A stretch of DNA of 24,710 bases from Candidatus Eiseniibacteriota bacterium (GTDB lineage Bacteria; Eisenbacteria; RBG-16-71-46): assembly GCA_021414165.1 (NCBI GenBank), contig JAIOPA010000175.1, positions 1-24,710 on the forward strand. The letters are read 5' to 3'. The notes under the pieces are model-generated. The model saw nothing but the letters and a program-made list of their open reading frames with translations, ran no database searches and was not told where the DNA came from. The translations under genes and the position numbers were made by a program. Positions 7,473-21,289 of the stretch are shown in pieces. Position 1 is the stretch's first letter; each line of letters opens with the position of its first letter.

Positions 7473-9209
7473 TCAGCGCAGCGCGCGCAACTTGTCGTTG
7501 ACGCGTCGCGCGTTCTCGCCATTCACCTCCGCGCCCAGCTTGTACTGCTCGCGCGCCAGTTCGTTCAACTGGAGCGCGTGGTACACGTCGCCCAGATGCT
7601 CGCGCACCACGGGGTCGCCGTTCGTGAGCTGGATCGCGCGCTCGAGCGGCTCACGCGCCTCGGCATGATGCCCCAGCCGGTACAGCACCCAGCCGTAGGA
7701 ATCCAGATACGCGCCGTTGTCGGGATCACGCTTGAGCGCGCGCTCGATGAGCTTGCGTGCCTCGCCCAGGTCGCGGTTGTGATCGGCCAGTACGTAGCCC
7801 AGGAAGTTGAGCGCCGGCCCCCACTCGGGTGCCATCTTGAGCGCCTCGCGTCCGGCCGCCACGGCGCCATCGATGTTGCCGCCACGTTCGCGGCAGCCGC
7901 CCAGGTCGAGCAGCACGCCAGGCTCGTTCGGCAACAGCTTGCGGACCACGAGCCACTCCTGTTCGGCGTCGGCATAGCGGCCGGCATCCTGCAGCGCACG
8001 CGCGAGCAGCCGGCGCGATTCGACGGAATCCGGCATGGCCGCCACCGTGGCGCGCGCACGCGCCACCGCGGAGTCCGGCAGACCGGCAGCGCTCCAGGCA
8101 CGCACCGCGAGCACGAGCCCGGCCGGGTGCCCGGGATGCTGGCGCACCCACTCGTCGGCGATGCGCGCGGCCTCACGGCCACGGCCGTTGCGGGCCATGA
8201 CCACCACGACGCGTGCGGTGTTCTCGGGATCCCCGGGGTTCAGCGCGCGCAGGCGCGCGATCGCGGCGTCGGCGTCGCTGGTGCGCTTCAAGCGCATGGC
8301 GAGATCAGCGATCACTTGCAGACCCTCGGGATCATCGGGCTCGGCGAGCTGCGCGCGACGCGCCTCGTCGTAGGCGTCGCGCACGCGATCGGCGCGCATG
8401 AGCAGCCCCACCAGACGGCGGCGCGTGCCCACGTCGTCGCGATGCACCTCGAGATGATGCTGGTACAGCTCGATGGCCTCGTTGGTCTTGCCCAGGTTCT
8501 CCTTGACCCACCCGAGCAGGAACAGCATGCCGGGCCGCGTGGGATTGAGATCCATGGCGCGCTCGAGCGCCTGCTCGGCCGGAGCGAACTCGCCCCGCCG
8601 CCCCAGCACCGCGGCGATCTGGAACCACGCCTCGCCGTCCTCGGGATCGACGTACGACAACCGCCGCCACGCGCGCTCGGCGACCTCGGGCTTGCGCAGC
8701 GTCTCGGCCACCCGTGCGGTGGTGCGCAGCACCTCGGCCTGTGTGGAATCGATGTCGCAGGCCCGCTCGAGCGGCCCCAGTGCCTCGGCGCTCCGGCCGG
8801 TGCTGAAGTACGCGGCGCCCTGCAGCCACAGCGCGCGCCAGTCGTTCGGATCCTGCGCCAGGGCGCGATCGGCGAACTCCAGGGAACGCGACGGGTCGCC
8901 GAGTTGCGCGCACAGCTGGCTGATCCGCACCAGCAGATCGGCCGAACGCGGATCGAATGCGAGCGCGCGGTAGTACTCGCCCAACGCCTCGGTGAGCTGG
9001 CCGCCTTGCTCGAGGAGCCGCGCCGACAGATAGCGCCGCAACCCTTCCTCGCTCACGAAGCGCCCACGCGTGCTGTCGGCCGCCGGTACCACCGGCACCA
9101 CGACCTTGGGCGCGGGAGCGACAGGCGCCCGCTTCGGCTTCGCCGCGCTCGCGGCACCCGGAGTCCCGAGTGCCACGATGACGGTGAGAACAGCGAGCAG
9201 GCGCCTCAT
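7473..9209 (-). CDS. Exported tetratricopeptide-repeat protein
   Basis: Signal peptide MRRLLAVLTVIVALGTPGAASA; many TPR units (e.g. ALNFLGYVLAD...ALKRDPDNGAYLDSYGWVLYRLG); SD-like AGGGGA upstream of ATG 9209. Confidence 0.88.
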   Translation of the reverse strand: MRRLLAVLTVIVALGTPGAASAAKPKRAPVAPAPKVVVPVVPAADSTRGRFVSEEGLRRYLSARLLEQGGQLTEALGEYYRALAFDPRSADLLVRISQLCAQLGDPSRSLEFADRALAQDPNDWRALWLQGAAYFSTGRSAEALGPLERACDIDSTQAEVLRTTARVAETLRKPEVAERAWRRLSYVDPEDGEAWFQIAAVLGRRGEFAPAEQALERAMDLNPTRPGMLFLLGWVKENLGKTNEAIELYQHHLEVHRDDVGTRRRLVGLLMRADRVRDAYDEARRAQLAEPDDPEGLQVIADLAMRLKRTSDADAAIARLRALNPGDPENTARVVVVMARNGRGREAARIADEWVRQHPGHPAGLVLAVRAWSAAGLPDSAVARARATVAAMPDSVESRRLLARALQDAGRYADAEQEWLVVRKLLPNEPGVLLDLGGCRERGGNIDGAVAAGREALKMAPEWGPALNFLGYVLADHNRDLGEARKLIERALKRDPDNGAYLDSYGWVLYRLGHHAEAREPLERAIQLTNGDPVVREHLGDVYHALQLNELAREQYKLGAEVNGENARRVNDKLRALR

Positions 9210-9222
9210 CACTGGGGATCCC

Positions 9223-11052
9223 CTAGCGCCGGCGACCGCGCCGGCCGTAGTCCGGCGAACGTCGCCGTCCGAAGTTGTCGAGCGCCTTCTCCATCTCATC
9301 GATGCGGGCCTCGCGCTCGGCCTCGGTCTCCTCGGGTTCCACCTCGGCCGGCGTCACATCGACGACCGGCGGCAGTTCGGGTTCCGGTTCGGGCTCGGGC
9401 TCGCGCTGAATGACGCGCGGGCTCGGGGCCTGTGCGACCGGCTCTTCGACCGGTCCCGGTGCAGGACCACTCGCGGGCGCGGGTGCAGCCGGCGTGTTGC
9501 GACGCCGGCCACGACCGAACGCCACGGGCTGCGGCCGCGGTGCTGCGGGTGCGGCAGGCTGGGGACGCGGCTCGGGCTCGGGTTCGTCGGCCATGCGCTC
9601 TTCGCGCACGGGCTGCGACCACGACCCGTCGTCGTCATCGTCGTCATCGTCATCGTCGCTGGCGACCACGGCCGGGGTGAACGTGCGGCCATGATCGTCG
9701 TTCGAGCGCGACTCACGGCGCGGCGCCTCGAGCGGCTCGGGCGTCTCGTCGTGATCATGCTCGTCGCCGGTGATCTCGCGCATCTCGGCCCGCACGGCCT
9801 CGACGAACGAATCGCGCTTCGCCTGACGCGCGTCGTCACTGGGCCGCGTGGCCGGCGTGTCGTCCTGCGGACTCGATGCGACCGCGTCGTCGTCGCTGTG
9901 CGGCGTGCGCTCGGTGCCCTCGGCATCGCGCGCGCCTCCCCGGCGGCGGCCACCGCGGCGGCGGCGACGGCGCGAACCACTCGCCGAGTCCTCGCCGTCT
10001 TCACGGTTGTCGTCACGCTCGTCATCGGTGTCGTCGCTCACGGGTGCCGGCAACTCGCGCACCGGCTCCGGACGGCTCACGGCCGCCGGACGCTCGGCCT
10101 CGGCGTCACGCGAACGGTCGCGGTCGCGATCGCGCCCACGGCCCCCGCGCTCGTCGTCGCGATCGCGGCCACCACGGCCACGCCGCGGCTCCCGCTCACG
10201 CGTCTCCTCGACCACGGCGACATCGACCTCGGCGTCGCCCTCCTCGCGCGTGCTGCGGCGCACCTTCTCGACCTTCTCGAGCGCGTCACGCGCCGCCGCC
10301 TGCTCGGCCTCCTTCTTGTTGTGACCGCGGCCTTCACCGAGCGTGCGCCGGCCGACCATGACCTCGACCATGAAATGCTTCGAGTGGTCCGGGCCGTACT
10401 CGCTGCGGATGCGGTACACCGGGTGCGTGCGGAACGCGTTCTGCACGTACTCCTGCAGGTGGCTCTTGTAGTTGGTGTGGCGCTTGTCCGACGTGATCGC
10501 GTCCGACTCGCTCAGCAGGTGCTGATGGATGAACGCACGCGCCGCCTCGAAGCCCTGGTCCAGGTAGATGGCACCCAGCACCGACTCGAACGCGTCGGCA
10601 AGGATCGACAGGCGCTGACGGCCGCCCGACTCGACCTCGGAATGGCTCATGAGCACGAAGCGCCCAAGGCCCATGCGCAGCGCACGCCGCGACAGGATCG
10701 CCTTGGAGACCAGCAGCGACTTGGTCTTGGTGAGCTGCCCCTCGTGCTCGTCGGGGTGACGGCGATACAGGTACTCGCTCGTCGTGAGGCCCAGCACAGA
10801 GTCGCCCAGGAACTCGAGACGCTCGTTGGATTCGCGCGGCCCCTGCCCGGTGACACTGAGGTAGGAACGGTGCGTGAGCGCGAGCTTCAGGAGCGTGAGG
10901 TCGCGGAACGGGATGCTGTACTGGCGGCAGAACTCCGCGAGGACGCGCTGTTCCTGCGCCCCCAGGGCCTGCTCACGGCTCGCCTCGGGCTTGGGCGCCC
11001 GGACGAACAGTGACTTGAGCCAGCCGAAGAACGACGGCTTCGACGACTGCAC
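9223..11052 (-). CDS. rnc: Ribonuclease III with long disordered C-terminal extension (~609 aa)
   Basis: ALTHRSY, signature NERLEFLGDSVLG, ILADAFESVLGAIYLDQG, dsRBD (NYKSHLQEY...GPDHSKHF...GHNKKEAEQAAARDAL). GTG 11052 is the first in-frame start downstream of the fabF stop; start is uncertain. Confidence 0.92.
   Translation of the reverse strand: MQSSKPSFFGWLKSLFVRAPKPEASREQALGAQEQRVLAEFCRQYSIPFRDLTLLKLALTHRSYLSVTGQGPRESNERLEFLGDSVLGLTTSEYLYRRHPDEHEGQLTKTKSLLVSKAILSRRALRMGLGRFVLMSHSEVESGGRQRLSILADAFESVLGAIYLDQGFEAARAFIHQHLLSESDAITSDKRHTNYKSHLQEYVQNAFRTHPVYRIRSEYGPDHSKHFMVEVMVGRRTLGEGRGHNKKEAEQAAARDALEKVEKVRRSTREEGDAEVDVAVVEETREREPRRGRGGRDRDDERGGRGRDRDRDRSRDAEAERPAAVSRPEPVRELPAPVSDDTDDERDDNREDGEDSASGSRRRRRRGGRRRGGARDAEGTERTPHSDDDAVASSPQDDTPATRPSDDARQAKRDSFVEAVRAEMREITGDEHDHDETPEPLEAPRRESRSNDDHGRTFTPAVVASDDDDDDDDDDGSWSQPVREERMADEPEPEPRPQPAAPAAPRPQPVAFGRGRRRNTPAAPAPASGPAPGPVEEPVAQAPSPRVIQREPEPEPEPELPPVVDVTPAEVEPEETEAEREARIDEMEKALDNFGRRRSPDYGRRGRRR
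9628..9657 (-). repeat. GAC/GAT tandem run encoding 10 consecutive Asp in the RNase III tail
   Basis: Plus strand gtcgtcgtcatcgtcgtcatcgtcatcgtc. Confidence 0.85.
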
Positions 11053-11111
11053 CTCGGGCTGTGGACGCGACTTGCGGCGTCCACGCCCACCACGACGGCG
11101 GCTACGGGCCT

Positions 11112-12359
11112 TTACGACACGGCCCGCATCACCAGACTGACGTTGTGTCCGCCGAACCCAAAGGAGTTCGACATCACGGCCTTCAACTTCGCGTTCCGGG
11201 CCGTATTCGGAACCAGATCGAGATCGCATTGGGGATCCGGTGTCTCTAGATTGATGGTCGGTGGAACGACCCCCCGCTGCAGGGCGAGCGCGCACACGAC
11301 GGCCTCGAGGCCGCCGGCAGCACCGAGCAGATGTCCGGTCATGGACTTGGTGGAACCCATCCAGAGGGAGCGAGCAAGCTCGCCGAAGACCGTCTTGACG
11401 GCGGTCACCTCGATGGGGTCCCCGGCCGGCGTGGAAGTGCCATGGGCGTTGATGTATCCCACCTCGTCCAGCGGTTGGGCGGCGTCGGCGAGCGCGCGCT
11501 TCATGGCGCGCGCCGCGCCTTCCCCGTCCACACATGGGCTGGTCATATGGTAGGCATCGCCCGAGGCGCCGTAGCCCGCGAGCTCACAGATCAGATTGGC
11601 GCCGCGAGCTTTCGCGTGCGCCTCCGTCTCGAGCACGAGCATCCCGGCTCCCTCGCCGATCACGAATCCGTCTCGTCCGGTGTCGAACGGGCGGCTCGCA
11701 TGCTGGGGGTCGTCATTACGAGTGGAGAGTGCGCGCATGTTGCCGAAGCCGGCCACCGCCATGGGCGTGATGGTCGCTTCTGCCCCGCCGCACAGGATGA
11801 CATCCGCGTCGCCGGCCCGCAGCAACCGGAGCGCCTCGCCAATGGCGTGGGCGCCCGATGCACATGCGGACACGGTGCCGAAGTTGGGGCCCTTGAGCCC
11901 GAACTGGATCGACACCTGACCGGCGGCCATGTCGGAGATCATCATGGGGATGAAGAACGGGCTGACGCGGCGATGGCCCTTCGTCATGAGCGCAGTATGC
12001 TGCTCCTCGAAGGTCTCCATGCCGCCGATGCCACTGCCCACGATGACGCCGATCCGCTCGGGGTCGGGGCGATTGTCCCCGAGACCTGCGGACCGCAGCG
12101 CTTCGTGCGAGGCCACGACCGCGAACTGGACGAAGCGATCCATCCGCTTCGCCTCCTTGCGATCGAGGATGCCCTCGAACGAGAAGTCCTTCACCTCGCA
12201 CGCGAAACGCGTCTCGTAATCAGACGCGTCGAACCGCGTGATGGGTCCGGCGCCGGACTTCCCGCTGACCAGGCTCTGCCAGCATTCCTCGACGTTATTC
12301 CCGACCGGCGAGACTACTCCCGCTCCGGTCACGAACACGCGTGGGGCGTTGCCGTTCAT
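11112..12359 (-). CDS. fabF: 3-oxoacyl-ACP synthase II
   Basis: RVFVTGAG, SACASG (catalytic Cys), INAHGTSTPAGD, KSMTGHLLGAAG, SNSFGFGGHN. ATG 12359 has better spacing to AGGAGA than ATG 12368. Confidence 0.97.
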   Translation of the reverse strand: MNGNAPRVFVTGAGVVSPVGNNVEECWQSLVSGKSGAGPITRFDASDYETRFACEVKDFSFEGILDRKEAKRMDRFVQFAVVASHEALRSAGLGDNRPDPERIGVIVGSGIGGMETFEEQHTALMTKGHRRVSPFFIPMMISDMAAGQVSIQFGLKGPNFGTVSACASGAHAIGEALRLLRAGDADVILCGGAEATITPMAVAGFGNMRALSTRNDDPQHASRPFDTGRDGFVIGEGAGMLVLETEAHAKARGANLICELAGYGASGDAYHMTSPCVDGEGAARAMKRALADAAQPLDEVGYINAHGTSTPAGDPIEVTAVKTVFGELARSLWMGSTKSMTGHLLGAAGGLEAVVCALALQRGVVPPTINLETPDPQCDLDLVPNTARNAKLKAVMSNSFGFGGHNVSLVMRAVS

Positions 12360-17930: not shown

Positions 17931-18161
17931 CTACTTCTTGTTGCGGGCCGCTGCCTTGGCCGGCTGCTTGGAAGCCTTCTTGGCGACCTTCTTGGCCGGC
18001 TTGGGGGCGGGCTTGGACTTCTTGGCCGGCTTGGCCGCCGCCTTCTTGGCGGGGGCAGCCTTCTTGGCCGGCGCGGCCTTCTTCGGAGCCGCCTTCTTGG
18101 CAGGCGCCGCCTTCTTGGCCGGAGCCGCCTTGGCCGGGGCCTTCTTCGCAGCTCCCTTGGC
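17931..18161 (-). repeat. Imperfect (A)KKAAP peptide repeats (~18-nt unit) forming the SucD tail
   Basis: Repeated gccttcttggc on the plus strand with variable third codon positions. Confidence 0.9.
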
Positions 18162-19067
18162 CCTCGCGCGGCGCCGCTGCAGCAGCTCGGCGACCAGGCC
18201 CGGGATCTCGGACGGGATGCGCGCCACCGGCACGCCTGCCGCCTCGAACGCCGCCATCTTCTCGGCCGCCGTACCCGTGCCGCCCGAGATGATCGCACCG
18301 GCGTGGCCCATGCGCTTGCCCGGAGGCGCGGTCTGGCCGGCCACGAACGCGACCACGGGCTTGGAGACGTGGCGCTTGATGAACTGCGCCGCCTGCTCCT
18401 CGGCGTTGCCGCCGATCTCGCCCATGAGCACGATCGCCTCGGTCTTGGGATCGGCCTCGAACAGCGTGAGCGCATCGATGAAGTCGGTGCCGATCACGGG
18501 GTCACCGCCGATGCCGAGACACGTGGTCTGGCCCAGGCCGGCGTCGGTGAGCTGCTTCACGACCTCGTAGGTGAGCGTGCCGCTCTTGCTCACCACGCCG
18601 ATCGGGCCCGGCGTGCAGATGTGACCGGGCAGGATGCCGACCTTGGACTGGCCCGGCGTGATGAGACCGGGGCAGTTGGGGCCGATCAAGCGAGGACGGC
18701 CGAGCGTGTTGTTCGGGCCACGCAGGTTGTTGACCTTGTGCCACGCGGCGAGCGTGTCGCGCACCGGCACGCCCTCGGTGATGCACACGATGAGCGCGAT
18801 GCCGGCATCGGCGGCCTCGTGGATGGCGTCGGCGGCGAAGGGCGCCGGCACGTAGATCACCGAGGCGTTCGCCTTGGTGGCTTCCACAGCCTCGGCGACC
18901 GAGTCGAACACCGGCACGCCGTGGATCTCGGTGCCGCCCTTACCGGGCGTGACACCGCCCACGACCTTGGTGCCGTACGCGATCATCTGCTGCGTGTGGA
19001 ACGCGCCATCGCGGCCGGTGATGCCCTGCACGATCAGACGGGTGTTGCGGTCGATCAGGATGCTCAC
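17931..19067 (-). CDS. sucD: Succinyl-CoA synthetase alpha subunit with histone H1-like C-terminal tail
   Basis: MSILID...[38 protein letters not shown] (phospho-His); GTGA overlap with sucC. Confidence 0.97.
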
Positions 19068-20203
19068 GCCCCCACCTCCTGCGCCTTCTCGATCACCATG
19101 CGCACGGCTTCATCCATGCTGGTGGTGGCGCTGAGACCAAAGTCATTCAGGATCTGCCGCGCCTTCTCCTCGTTCGTCCCCGTGAGGCGGATGACGAGCG
19201 GCACGGACAGCGGCGACGCGGTGAGCGAGGCCACGATGCCGTTGGCGACGTCGTCGCAGCGCGTGATGCCACCGAAGATGTTGAACAGGATGCCGCGCAC
19301 ATGCGACTCGGTGGTGATGATCTTGAGCGCCGCGGTCACCTTCTCCGGGTTCGACGAGCCGCCGATGTCCAAGAAGTTCGCGGGTTCGCCGCCGTAGTGC
19401 TTGATCACGTCCATGGTGGCCATGGCGAGGCCGGCGCCATTGACGACACAGCCGATGTCGCCATCGAGCTTCACGTACGACAGGCCCTTCTCACGCGCCA
19501 GGCGCGCACCGGGCGTCTCCTCGGCGGGGTCACGCCAGTTGTCCCAGTCCTTGTGGCGGAACTCGGCGTTGTCGTCGAGGACGACCTTGGCATCGAGCGC
19601 GATGACCTTGCCCTCGGGCGTGACGGCCAGCGGATTGATCTCGGCGAGCGAGCAGTCGCCCTCCATGTACACGCGGTAGAGACGCATGAGGATGTCGGCC
19701 GCCTGCGACGCCTGCTTGAAGTCCGGGAACAGCGGCGTCATGAGGTTGCGCGCGTGGTACGAGCGCAGGCCCTCAAGCGGGATGTGGAACTTCACGATCT
19801 TCTCGGGCGCGGTCTTGGCGACCTCTTCGATGTCCACGCCACCCTCGGCGGACAGCATGACGAGCGGCGCCTTCTTCTCACGGTCCATGACGATCGCGCA
19901 GTAGTACTCCTTGGCGATGTCGGCGGCCTGGGCCACGAGCACCTTGTGCACGGGCAGGCCCTTGATGGTGAGCGCCAGGATGTCGCGCGCCTTGTCGTAG
20001 GCCTCGTCGGGGTTGTGCGCGAGCTTCACGCCACCGGCCTTGCCGCGGCCACCGGCCTGCACCTGCGCCTTGATCACCACGGTGCCGCCGAGCGAGGCCG
20101 CGATGTCACGCGCCTCTTCCGGCGTGCCCGCGACCTGACCCGGCAGCACCGGCATGCCGAAGCGCGCGAACAGTTCCTTGCCCTGATATTCGTGGAGGTT
20201 CAT
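19064..20203 (-). CDS. sucC: Succinyl-CoA synthetase beta subunit
   Basis: [64 protein letters not shown]. Start reassigned to ATG 20203 (SD GGGAGA). Confidence 0.97.
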
Positions 20204-20287
20204 CGGATCTCCCAGGGCCGTGACCGGTGCGCAAGGCTGCGCACGATGACGGCGGAGGACATAGGTGGGGGGAGGAAAAGACGGGCA

Positions 20288-20317
20288 AAGGTAATGGACC
20301 CGGGGCGATATGGGCAA
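20288..20317 (-). promoter_or_regulatory. Putative sigma70 promoter for sucCD-ndk
   Basis: TTGCCC (20317-20312) - 18 nt - TACCTT (20293-20288). Confidence 0.45.
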
Positions 20318-20423
20318 ACGGTCCGGAAGGGGCGTTCCGGGGCGGGACGGCGGGCTGCTCCGGGGAATCTGCGCGTTCCGGGCGGCGCTCGGGTGGGCGC
20401 CTCTGGGGTAGCCAAGAATCCCG

Positions 20424-20452
20424 TTCCCTAGGCCCGCCCTGAACGTTAAGCT
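20424..20452 (+). promoter_or_regulatory. Possible sigma70 promoter for the secreted protein
   Basis: TTCCCT - 17 nt - TAAGCT; weak -35. Confidence 0.3.
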
Positions 20453-20518
20453 CTTTTCACCCCCAGTAGCGCCCCGGGCTGCGCTCATGCCCCCGGAACC
20501 CATGACTGGAGCCGCAGC

Positions 20519-21289
20519 ATGCTCAAGGCCGTCCGCTCCACCCTGCTCGCGCTGGGACTGGTGTGCGTTGCCGTCCCCTCGCTCGCCGGCACGATCGTGC
20601 TTGAACCTTGGACGACGCCGTTCCCTCCCAACCTGTGCCTCGAGGACACGCACGCTGCGGTGATCTTCGCGGGGCCGTATTGCGACGGATTCAGTTGCCC
20701 TCCGGGGACCATTCGATTCGGCCCCTGCAACGGCAGCAACAGCACCGAGTTCAGCGTGCTTTCCTCAGAGTCGTTCGGGACGTTCACTCGTTACGTCGAT
20801 CTTCAGGGAGAGACGGTCTCGAGCGGCATCCTGCCATCGGCCCAGCGGATCGACTTCCGACATGGCGACATTCCGGTCTGGCTCTCGGTGCTGGACTATC
20901 AGTGGTCCATCCCGGGTGGCTTCAATCTGCCCGCCCACGGGGTGGATGAACTCCAGTTCGAGGTCCTCGGCACCCCGGGGATCGACCCTCCGATCTCGGT
21001 GACCGTGATCCTCTGGGGGCTGACCGGCCAGCTGACGCTCACTCGGTCCATCACCCAGCCGGGCCTGGTCTCGCTACCACTCGCCGACTTCGAATCGGTG
21101 ACCGGCTACACGGGCACGGATGTGAATGAGGTCTCGGTCGAGTTCAGCAACTGTCCGAATGCCGATTGCACCGGCCTGCCTCCCGCGACCGCAGGCGGCT
21201 TCTCGCTCGGCCCGATCTCGTTCCACAGCACGCTTCCGACGCCGACGAAGCAGCGCTCGTGGTCACAGGTGAAGTCGATCTACCGGTAA
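20519..21289 (+). CDS. Secreted hypothetical protein (beta-rich, 6 Cys in the mature part) with C-terminal SWSQVKSIYR motif
   Basis: SD GGAG; Sec signal MLKAVRSTLLALGLVCVAVPSLA; protein-like composition; no family recognised. Confidence 0.85.
   Translation: MLKAVRSTLLALGLVCVAVPSLAGTIVLEPWTTPFPPNLCLEDTHAAVIFAGPYCDGFSCPPGTIRFGPCNGSNSTEFSVLSSESFGTFTRYVDLQGETVSSGILPSAQRIDFRHGDIPVWLSVLDYQWSIPGGFNLPAHGVDELQFEVLGTPGIDPPISVTVILWGLTGQLTLTRSITQPGLVSLPLADFESVTGYTGTDVNEVSVEFSNCPNADCTGLPPATAGGFSLGPISFHSTLPTPTKQRSWSQVKSIYR

Follow-up and report, generated by a model that had tools for sequence, protein, structure and literature searches.

The window analysed here, a stretch of 24,710 nucleotides (positions 1 to 24,710 of contig JAIOPA010000175.1, assembly GCA_021414165.1) from the uncultured soil bacterium Candidatus Eisenbacteria, carries on its minus strand an rnc gene whose product, on the evidence of its domains and their conservation, is the housekeeping class-1 RNase III of this organism. 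The same product continues for 344 residues beyond its domain for binding double-stranded RNA (dsRBD), and this tail is the subject of our study. The assembly of the window genome spans 2.1 Mb and is 80% complete, and residue numbers given below follow P0001, the 609-residue version of the protein that starts at GTG 11052. Pfam placed the RNase III domain at residues 53-181 (PF14622, 6.6e-37; PF00636, 3.7e-23) and a single dsRBD directly after it at residues 195-260 (PF00035, E 4.6e-16), and the NCBIfam equivalog model TIGR02191 matched with 246 bits (cut-off 166) over model positions 3-219 of 219. These matches, together with the 344 codons behind the dsRBD, bear out the original prediction, made from the letters of the window, of an intact catalytic domain and dsRBD followed by a long tail. 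Across 113 homologues the NERLEFLGD and ADAFE motifs are invariant or nearly so, with D153 and E156 invariant and E77, E80 and D84 at least 90% conserved, and the ratio of nonsynonymous to synonymous substitution (dN/dS) in the core is 0.007 against the closest orthologue with DNA. The core (10273-10896) is unusually conserved, with more than 90% identity over 118 homologues, and has a small insertion, SVTGQGPRES, ahead of the signature motif. Independent assemblies share the gene order fabD-fabG-acpP-fabF-rnc-tetratricopeptide repeat (TPR) protein-extracytoplasmic function (ECF) sigma factor-anti-sigma factor. An open reading frame (ORF) on the opposite strand (9070-11013) also covers the catalytic domain and is therefore taken as a shadow frame.

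Compared with the class-1 enzymes of E. coli, Aquifex and Thermotoga (approximately 220-250 residues), the protein has the same single RNase III domain, acidic residues and single dsRBD, and its gene follows acpP-fabF, as in many bacteria. It differs in size: from the start codon that we favour it comprises 668 residues, of which approximately 95 precede the first canonical helix and 344 disordered ones follow the dsRBD, compared with a model length of 219 positions.

The tail is made up of 61 Arg, 2 Lys, 46 Asp, 46 Glu and 42 Pro (12%) among its 344 residues, with a charged fraction of 0.45, a net charge of -29 and 11% hydrophobic residues. The description of a charge-blocky tail of about 345 residues in the original prediction thus holds, as its charges are segregated beyond those of same-composition shuffles (z 4.5; the median over 99 homologues is also 4.5), giving a predicted disordered region with alternating charge blocks of the type found in bacterial ribonucleoprotein bodies (BR-bodies). 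Net charge is negative in 99 of 99 homologue tails (median -19, range -67 to -2), and tail length ranges from 185 to 352 residues, varying even between close relatives. AlphaFold2, run on a 113-sequence alignment, returned a predicted local distance difference test score (pLDDT) above 90 in the core and mostly below 50 over residues 277-570; this low confidence over the tail we read as disorder, in keeping with what had been predicted.

On comparative grounds, this tail is a real, translated, selected and clade-specific part of RNase III. The G+C content at third codon positions (GC3) holds at 0.75-0.86 along its length, comparison with the closest orthologue for which DNA is available gives a tail dN/dS of 0.26, and every indel stays in frame; values of 0.5-0.9 were obtained for more distant pairs, whose alignments are unreliable. 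Among 5.8 billion proteins, searched within a similar length range, 489 RNase III proteins with such tails were recovered, so that orthologues do run on past the dsRBD, and all named among them belong to Candidatus Eisenbacteria. Because these lines of evidence agree with the shared ending described below and with the conserved gene order, we regard the tail as part of the protein. The opposite possibility, that it stems from read-through, a frameshift, an assembly chimera or a spurious frame in high-G+C DNA, deserves mention since such DNA yields many long spurious ORFs, several of which overlap rnc. Independent assemblies and approximately 40 genomes of the order share both the architecture and the C-terminal motif, however, and with a tail under selection in a conserved gene order, an artefact is extremely improbable and is excluded by the orthologue comparison.

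Translation of rnc probably starts not at GTG 11052, as the original prediction of a protein of about 609 residues implied, but at ATG 11229, which lies within fabF, read in another frame. All 30 genomes of the order that were compared have an ATG in frame with rnc, 38-42 codons before the fabF stop. The codon that precedes the conserved Cys (TGC) of FabF, and so completes this ATG, stands for seven amino acids (GAA, ACA, AAA, GCA, CAA, CTA and GTA) and always ends in A, although A-ending codons make up only about 8% of fabF codons. Just upstream, 29 of 30 genomes retain GAT, a rare codon for Asp, which, counted from the 30-genome table, puts GGA at positions -9 to -7 in 27 of the 30. At least 11 genomes of the order have the embedded ATG as the only canonical in-frame start before the catalytic domain. 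Further, the stretch between the fabF stop and GTG 11052, KARSRRRGGRGRRKSR, has entropies of 0.73, 0.42 and 1.62 at the three codon positions (26 genomes), a coding signature from which we conclude that this stretch is translated. Several database records start at this ATG with the conserved beginning MR(P/S)R, including three NCBI entries named 'ribonuclease III [Candidatus Eisenbacteria]'. We rejected the GTG start since the 60 nt preceding it show coding-type evolution and a start codon is missing at this position in at least 11 genomes of the order.

The overlap of fabF and rnc amounts to 117 nt in different frames and is conserved across the order, with selection visible on both the embedded ATG and the Shine-Dalgarno-like GGA. 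It is an unusually long conserved gene overlap, and ribosomes translating fabF would run across the place where rnc translation begins, and the amount of RNase III could be set in this way. The conserved start matters for annotation as well, as automated callers give at least three different rnc N-termini. The features of the locus are compiled in the table.

Table. Features of the rnc locus, in window coordinates.
Feature	Position	Strand	Remarks
rnc, revised full frame, 668 residues plus stop	9223..11229	-	from ATG 11229
First 39 rnc codons, overlapping the last 38 fabF codons and stop in another frame	11112..11229	-	ATG built from CAA-TGC (Gln-Cys of FabF)
N-terminal Arg box RSRRRGGRGRRK	11071..11106	-	between the fabF stop and GTG 11052; coding-type entropy
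N-terminal peptide MRSRSGSEYGPER of the product from the revised start			predicted
N-terminal hydrophobic/amphipathic motif SFFGWLKSLF	11005..11034	-	candidate membrane- or partner-binding helix
RNase III catalytic domain	10510..10896	-	carries the NERLEFLGD and ADAFE acidic residues
Double-stranded RNA-binding domain	10273..10470	-	PF00035; AlphaFold2 pLDDT 80-95
Polyampholyte tail, 344 residues, predicted disordered	9226..10257	-	pLDDT, charge patterning, dN/dS, family-wide conservation
Arg box RRRRRRGGRRR	9940..9972	-	about 90% column identity in 113-118 homologues; also in family f7 tails
Predicted helix DDARQAKRDSFVEAVRAEMREIT	9769..9837	-	AlphaFold2 406-428, block pLDDT 59-80; closest relatives only
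D10 acidic block	9628..9657	-	acidic character partly kept, length varies
FGRGRRR motif	9499..9519	-	G513 and R514 at least 90% conserved
PVVDVTP motif	9349..9369	-	about 70% column identity; in consensus
C-terminal module: amphipathic helix EAEREARIDEMEKALDNF, then GRRRSPDYGRRGRRR-COOH	9226..9324	-	conserved in nearly all close homologues

Every basic, acidic and aromatic-Gly-Arg motif named in the original prediction is present in the tail, namely RRGRGGRDRD, SRRRRRRGGRRRGG, D10, EPEPEPE and the three aromatic-Gly-Arg motifs FGRGRRR, FGRRR and the terminal YGRRGRRR-COOH. Alignments of 113-118 homologues delimit four conserved islands in the tail (R6GGR3, FGRGRRR, PVVDV and the C-terminal module), so that the motif conservation which the prediction called for is found. 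Of the two helix-like islands that it had singled out, both are predicted by AlphaFold2 (residues 406-428 and 577-593) and only the second is conserved; for the island RDSFVEAVRAEMREITG, the homologue alignments gave no conservation outside the closest relatives. The second helix reaches a pLDDT of 87 and lies in the C-terminal module, which contains the most amphipathic 11-mers of the protein and in which F594, G595, R597 and R604 are at least 90% conserved. Nearly all close homologues share the ending RI(D/E)EMERAL(D/E)NFGRRRxxDYGRRGRRR, and distant ones retain an aromatic-GRR, Arg-rich end. The module appears to be peculiar to this enzyme: its matches are RNase III proteins only, our searches found none on other proteins, and a six-frame scan of the window genome for aromatic-Gly-Arg C-termini returned rnc only. 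Likewise, a tail profile compared with 1.84 billion representative proteins gave 70 matches, the strong ones being RNase III proteins of the same clade or their fragments, and no homologue of the tail outside this clade was detectable there. The weak matches were compositional; the 10 that were checked included two RNase E C-terminal regions and one NYN-domain RNase.

The N-terminal motif SFFGWLKSLF is conserved in nearly all homologues that cover the region and is predicted by AlphaFold2 as a helix at residues 8-16. Its conservation extends over the phylum, and counterparts occur in other families as GFIGWLKRLFGG (family f3), VNFLRKLFGL and MNFLLRWFG, and in families whose enzyme has no tail the motif (MNFLLRWFG, VNFLRKLFGL) forms the very N-terminus. 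The membrane-targeting sequence of E. coli MinD is KGFLKRLFGG (as quoted in PMC5471200). The rnc motif follows the same pattern; LKRLFGG is common to the MinD sequence and the f3 version GFIGWLKRLFGG, and SFFGWLKSLF has a hydrophobic moment close to that of the MinD anchor (0.44 and 0.45). The two differ in that one ends an ATPase and the other begins a nuclease, and in that the motif of the window is more hydrophobic. We treat a MinD-like membrane anchor at the N-terminus of RNase III as a lead suggested by the sequence.

A box of the same kind as the RNase III Arg box, RKRRRRGRRGGRGRRRGG, occurs in the KhpB/Jag protein of the window genome (domains Jag_N, KH and R3H; contig C42, L023 441-2090, plus strand), which has a charged disordered linker of approximately 345 residues between Jag_N and KH. 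The copies in rnc and KhpB are the sole credible coding ones in the 2.1-Mb assembly.

To place the tail within the phylum, stop-to-stop frames around RNase III were surveyed in 151 genomes. The family of the window (f1) and f3 have frames of 500-1000 residues, as does a single f2 genome; in f7 they measure 360-600 residues, and in f4, f8, f10, f13 and the remaining f2 genomes 253-310 residues. The long frames do not end alike: tails of f1 close with an Arg-rich aromatic ending ([FY]GRR and an Arg-rich end throughout the family), those of f3 consist of GERGER-type repeats with an acidic motif at the end, and those of f7 open with the Arg box also seen in the rnc tail of the window, followed by EPREGR repeats and a final DPWAASRLH. 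Since tails differ by family, the charged tail is best described as a lineage-specific addition that has been elaborated differently in each.

Other enzymes of RNA decay were considered in the window genome and its relatives. The rnc product has no match to PF10150, and RNase E/G is encoded by a separate gene. That this RNase E/G might lack an intrinsically disordered region had been raised in the original prediction, and it does: in the relatives of the window it is a single gene of approximately 515 residues that ends just past the small domain, with no C-terminal scaffold. Frames of RNase E/G measure approximately 500-620 residues in every family of the phylum, longer ones being due to upstream read-in (three cases checked); the phylum is therefore one without an RNase E scaffold tail, whether or not its RNase III has a tail. 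PNPase is present in the window genome and in three near-complete relatives, RNase Y in the three relatives and as a fragment in the window genome, and RNase J was not found in any of these four genomes, that of the window being 80% complete. Two matters of assembly were seen in passing. The PNPase frame of the window genome (contig C457, L024 1934-3574, minus strand) has an in-frame TAG after a 546-residue core, which may be a sequencing error in a metagenome assembly or a real break. RNase G lies on two short overlapping contigs, C90 and C310 (L001, L002), where most relatives give one match, an arrangement that suggests strain variation at a break in the assembly and not two genes.

The length of the tail invites the explanation that it grew neutrally, with replication slippage in a gene of 68-73% G+C drawing out what was a short basic motif at the C-terminus into a spacer that is tolerated and in which only the terminal motifs matter. 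Such growth would account for lengths that vary between 185 and 352 residues even among close relatives, for the unrelated GERGER and EPREGR repeat tails elsewhere in the phylum, for the long low-complexity segments of SucD and KhpB, and for the dN/dS of 0.5-0.9 in distant pairs, as far as those unreliable alignments can be used. It is hard to reconcile with a tail dN/dS of 0.26 against the closest orthologue, a reading frame that stays open across every indel, four conserved internal motifs, and a charge fraction, net negative charge and patterning that are kept in 99 homologues. We consider neutral growth very unlikely as the full account.

If the tail is functional, its acidity suggests a second explanation. 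Acidic disordered tails of Hfq, SSB and HMGB1 compete with nucleic acid, and the net-acidic tail of RNase III, with D10, EPEPEPE and its DE-rich blocks, might act as a regulatory, autoinhibitory nucleic-acid mimic. It would fold onto the dsRBD, the catalytic valley and its own Arg boxes, making the enzyme more selective or keeping it off bulk RNA until a signal or partner arrives. The net charge of -29, with negative values throughout the 99 homologues (median -19, range -67 to -2), fits such a role, as does the segregation of acidic from basic blocks (z 4.5), and the core dN/dS of 0.007 would fit additional intramolecular contacts. Yet the most conserved elements of the tail (R6GGR3, FGRGRRR, the C-terminal helix and the Arg end) are basic or hydrophobic and not acidic, and the acidic blocks vary in length and position. 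On balance, autoinhibition appears unlikely to be the main function.

A third explanation starts from the Arg-rich boxes. Processing of rRNA is the best-established role of bacterial RNase III, and the boxes could tether the enzyme to nascent rRNA or assembling subunits for co-transcriptional cutting of the 30S precursor. An Arg to Lys count of 61 to 2 and three aromatic-Gly-Arg motifs are typical of RNA-binding low-complexity segments, and KhpB, an RNA-binding protein, has a very similar Arg box in its 345-residue linker. Nothing in the tail, however, provides a specific link to the ribosome, and rRNA is processed in other families of this phylum by an RNase III that has no tail, which leaves a tether of this kind distinctly unlikely.

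We rank first, with about even confidence, the reading in which the rnc product works like RNase E, as a catalytic head joined to a motif-bearing disordered scaffold, here built on RNase III. It is preferred because the most conserved elements of the tail are Arg-rich or hydrophobic, like the motifs of RNase E that bind RNA, PNPase or the membrane, and because the charge patterning is conserved and the C-terminal module looks like a docking site. Mechanistically, ribosomes would start at the ATG 117 nt inside fabF and produce a 668-residue RNase III in which an N-terminal extension of approximately 95 residues precedes, and the 344-residue tail follows, the canonical catalytic domain and dsRBD. 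The extension would supply the Arg box RRRGGRGRR and the hydrophobic/amphipathic helix SFFGWLKSLF. As the AR and REER motifs do in tails of RNase E, the Arg boxes may add multivalent sites for RNA binding, and the acidic blocks between them may promote self-association or clustering with RNA through electrostatic contacts within and between molecules. The two amphipathic helices, one N-terminal and one C-terminal, would be docking sites for the membrane or a protein partner.

The comparison with the RNase E scaffolds of E. coli, Caulobacter (BR-bodies) and P. aeruginosa is instructive in both directions. Shared are a long disordered region on an endoribonuclease, with Arg-rich boxes, acidic blocks and conserved short linear motifs, a C-terminal end formed by an Arg-rich aromatic motif, and an amphipathic helix as a candidate membrane anchor, besides the weak tail-profile matches. 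Arg-rich or aromatic C-terminal motifs serve as PNPase sites in cyanobacteria (RRRRRRSSA) and in Caulobacter (EKPRRGWWRR) (PMC3964918), and in RNase E of P. aeruginosa Arg-rich motifs drive RNA binding and the formation of foci (PMC11964227). The two systems differ in that they have no homology, the rnc head cutting double-stranded and RNase E single-stranded RNA, and in that the candidate membrane helix is N-terminal in rnc and not internal. A further parallel is offered by Drosha, a eukaryotic class-2 RNase III with two RNase III domains and with Pro-rich and Arg/Ser-rich N-terminal regions. Drosha too is an RNase III enzyme with a long Arg-rich low-complexity region outside its catalytic part, but it differs in its second RNase III domain and in the position and composition of that region, and the tails are unrelated.

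Several observations weigh against an RNase E-like scaffold. Across the families of the phylum, the presence of an RNase III tail and the length of RNase E did not complement each other, and since tail-less families have the same short RNase E/G, nothing suggests that the tail replaces a lost RNase E tail. RNase Y could itself be the scaffold of this clade. With its net acidity (-29; homologue median -19), the tail is no less suited to regulation or autoinhibition than to capturing RNA. Charged low-complexity segments also occur in KhpB and SucD of the window genome, and part of the tail length may reflect a tendency of the whole lineage to grow segments of this kind. A predicted fold of the 546-residue PNPase core (C457) with rnc residues 556-609 (54 residues) scored 0.22 against a mark of 0.34, which speaks neither for nor against binding. 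With these points taken into account, a degradosome or condensate nucleated by RNase III is still, in our analysis, a plausible proposal.

Elsewhere in the window, SucD (the alpha subunit of succinyl-CoA ligase) ends in an AKKAAP-type repeat tail of approximately 75 residues (17934-18160, minus strand) that resembles histone H1 or HupB, its Pfam domains ending near residue 283 of 378. The longest ORF of SucC (19067-20653, minus strand) has 529 residues, with approximately 150 ahead of the ATP-grasp domain, reflecting either a mis-set start or an N-terminal extension.

In conclusion, bacteria are known to organise RNA decay on scaffold tails of RNase E and, in different guises, of RNase Y and RNase J; to our knowledge, RNase III has so far been regarded as a compact, free-standing enzyme. 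Full-text literature searches turned up no paper in which a bacterial RNase III is described as having a long disordered tail, in agreement with the original prediction, whose author knew of none. In its most far-reaching form, our reading would make RNase III, and not RNase E/G, the motif-bearing hub of RNA processing in this order of Eisenbacteria, tethered to the membrane by the MinD-like helix and gathering RNA and partners through its Arg boxes and C-terminal module into an RNase III-centred degradosome or condensate, with synthesis that starts inside fabF tying its level to translation of the fatty-acid operon; taken as a whole, we judge this full picture to be rather improbable. Its parts are concrete and testable, namely the 33-residue C-terminal module, the two Arg boxes and the MinD-like N-terminal helix. 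That a family-level clade keeps a motif-bearing disordered tail on its RNase III, with RNase E/G tail-less throughout the phylum, suggests that the design of a nuclease head with a disordered scaffold has arisen on a different nuclease.

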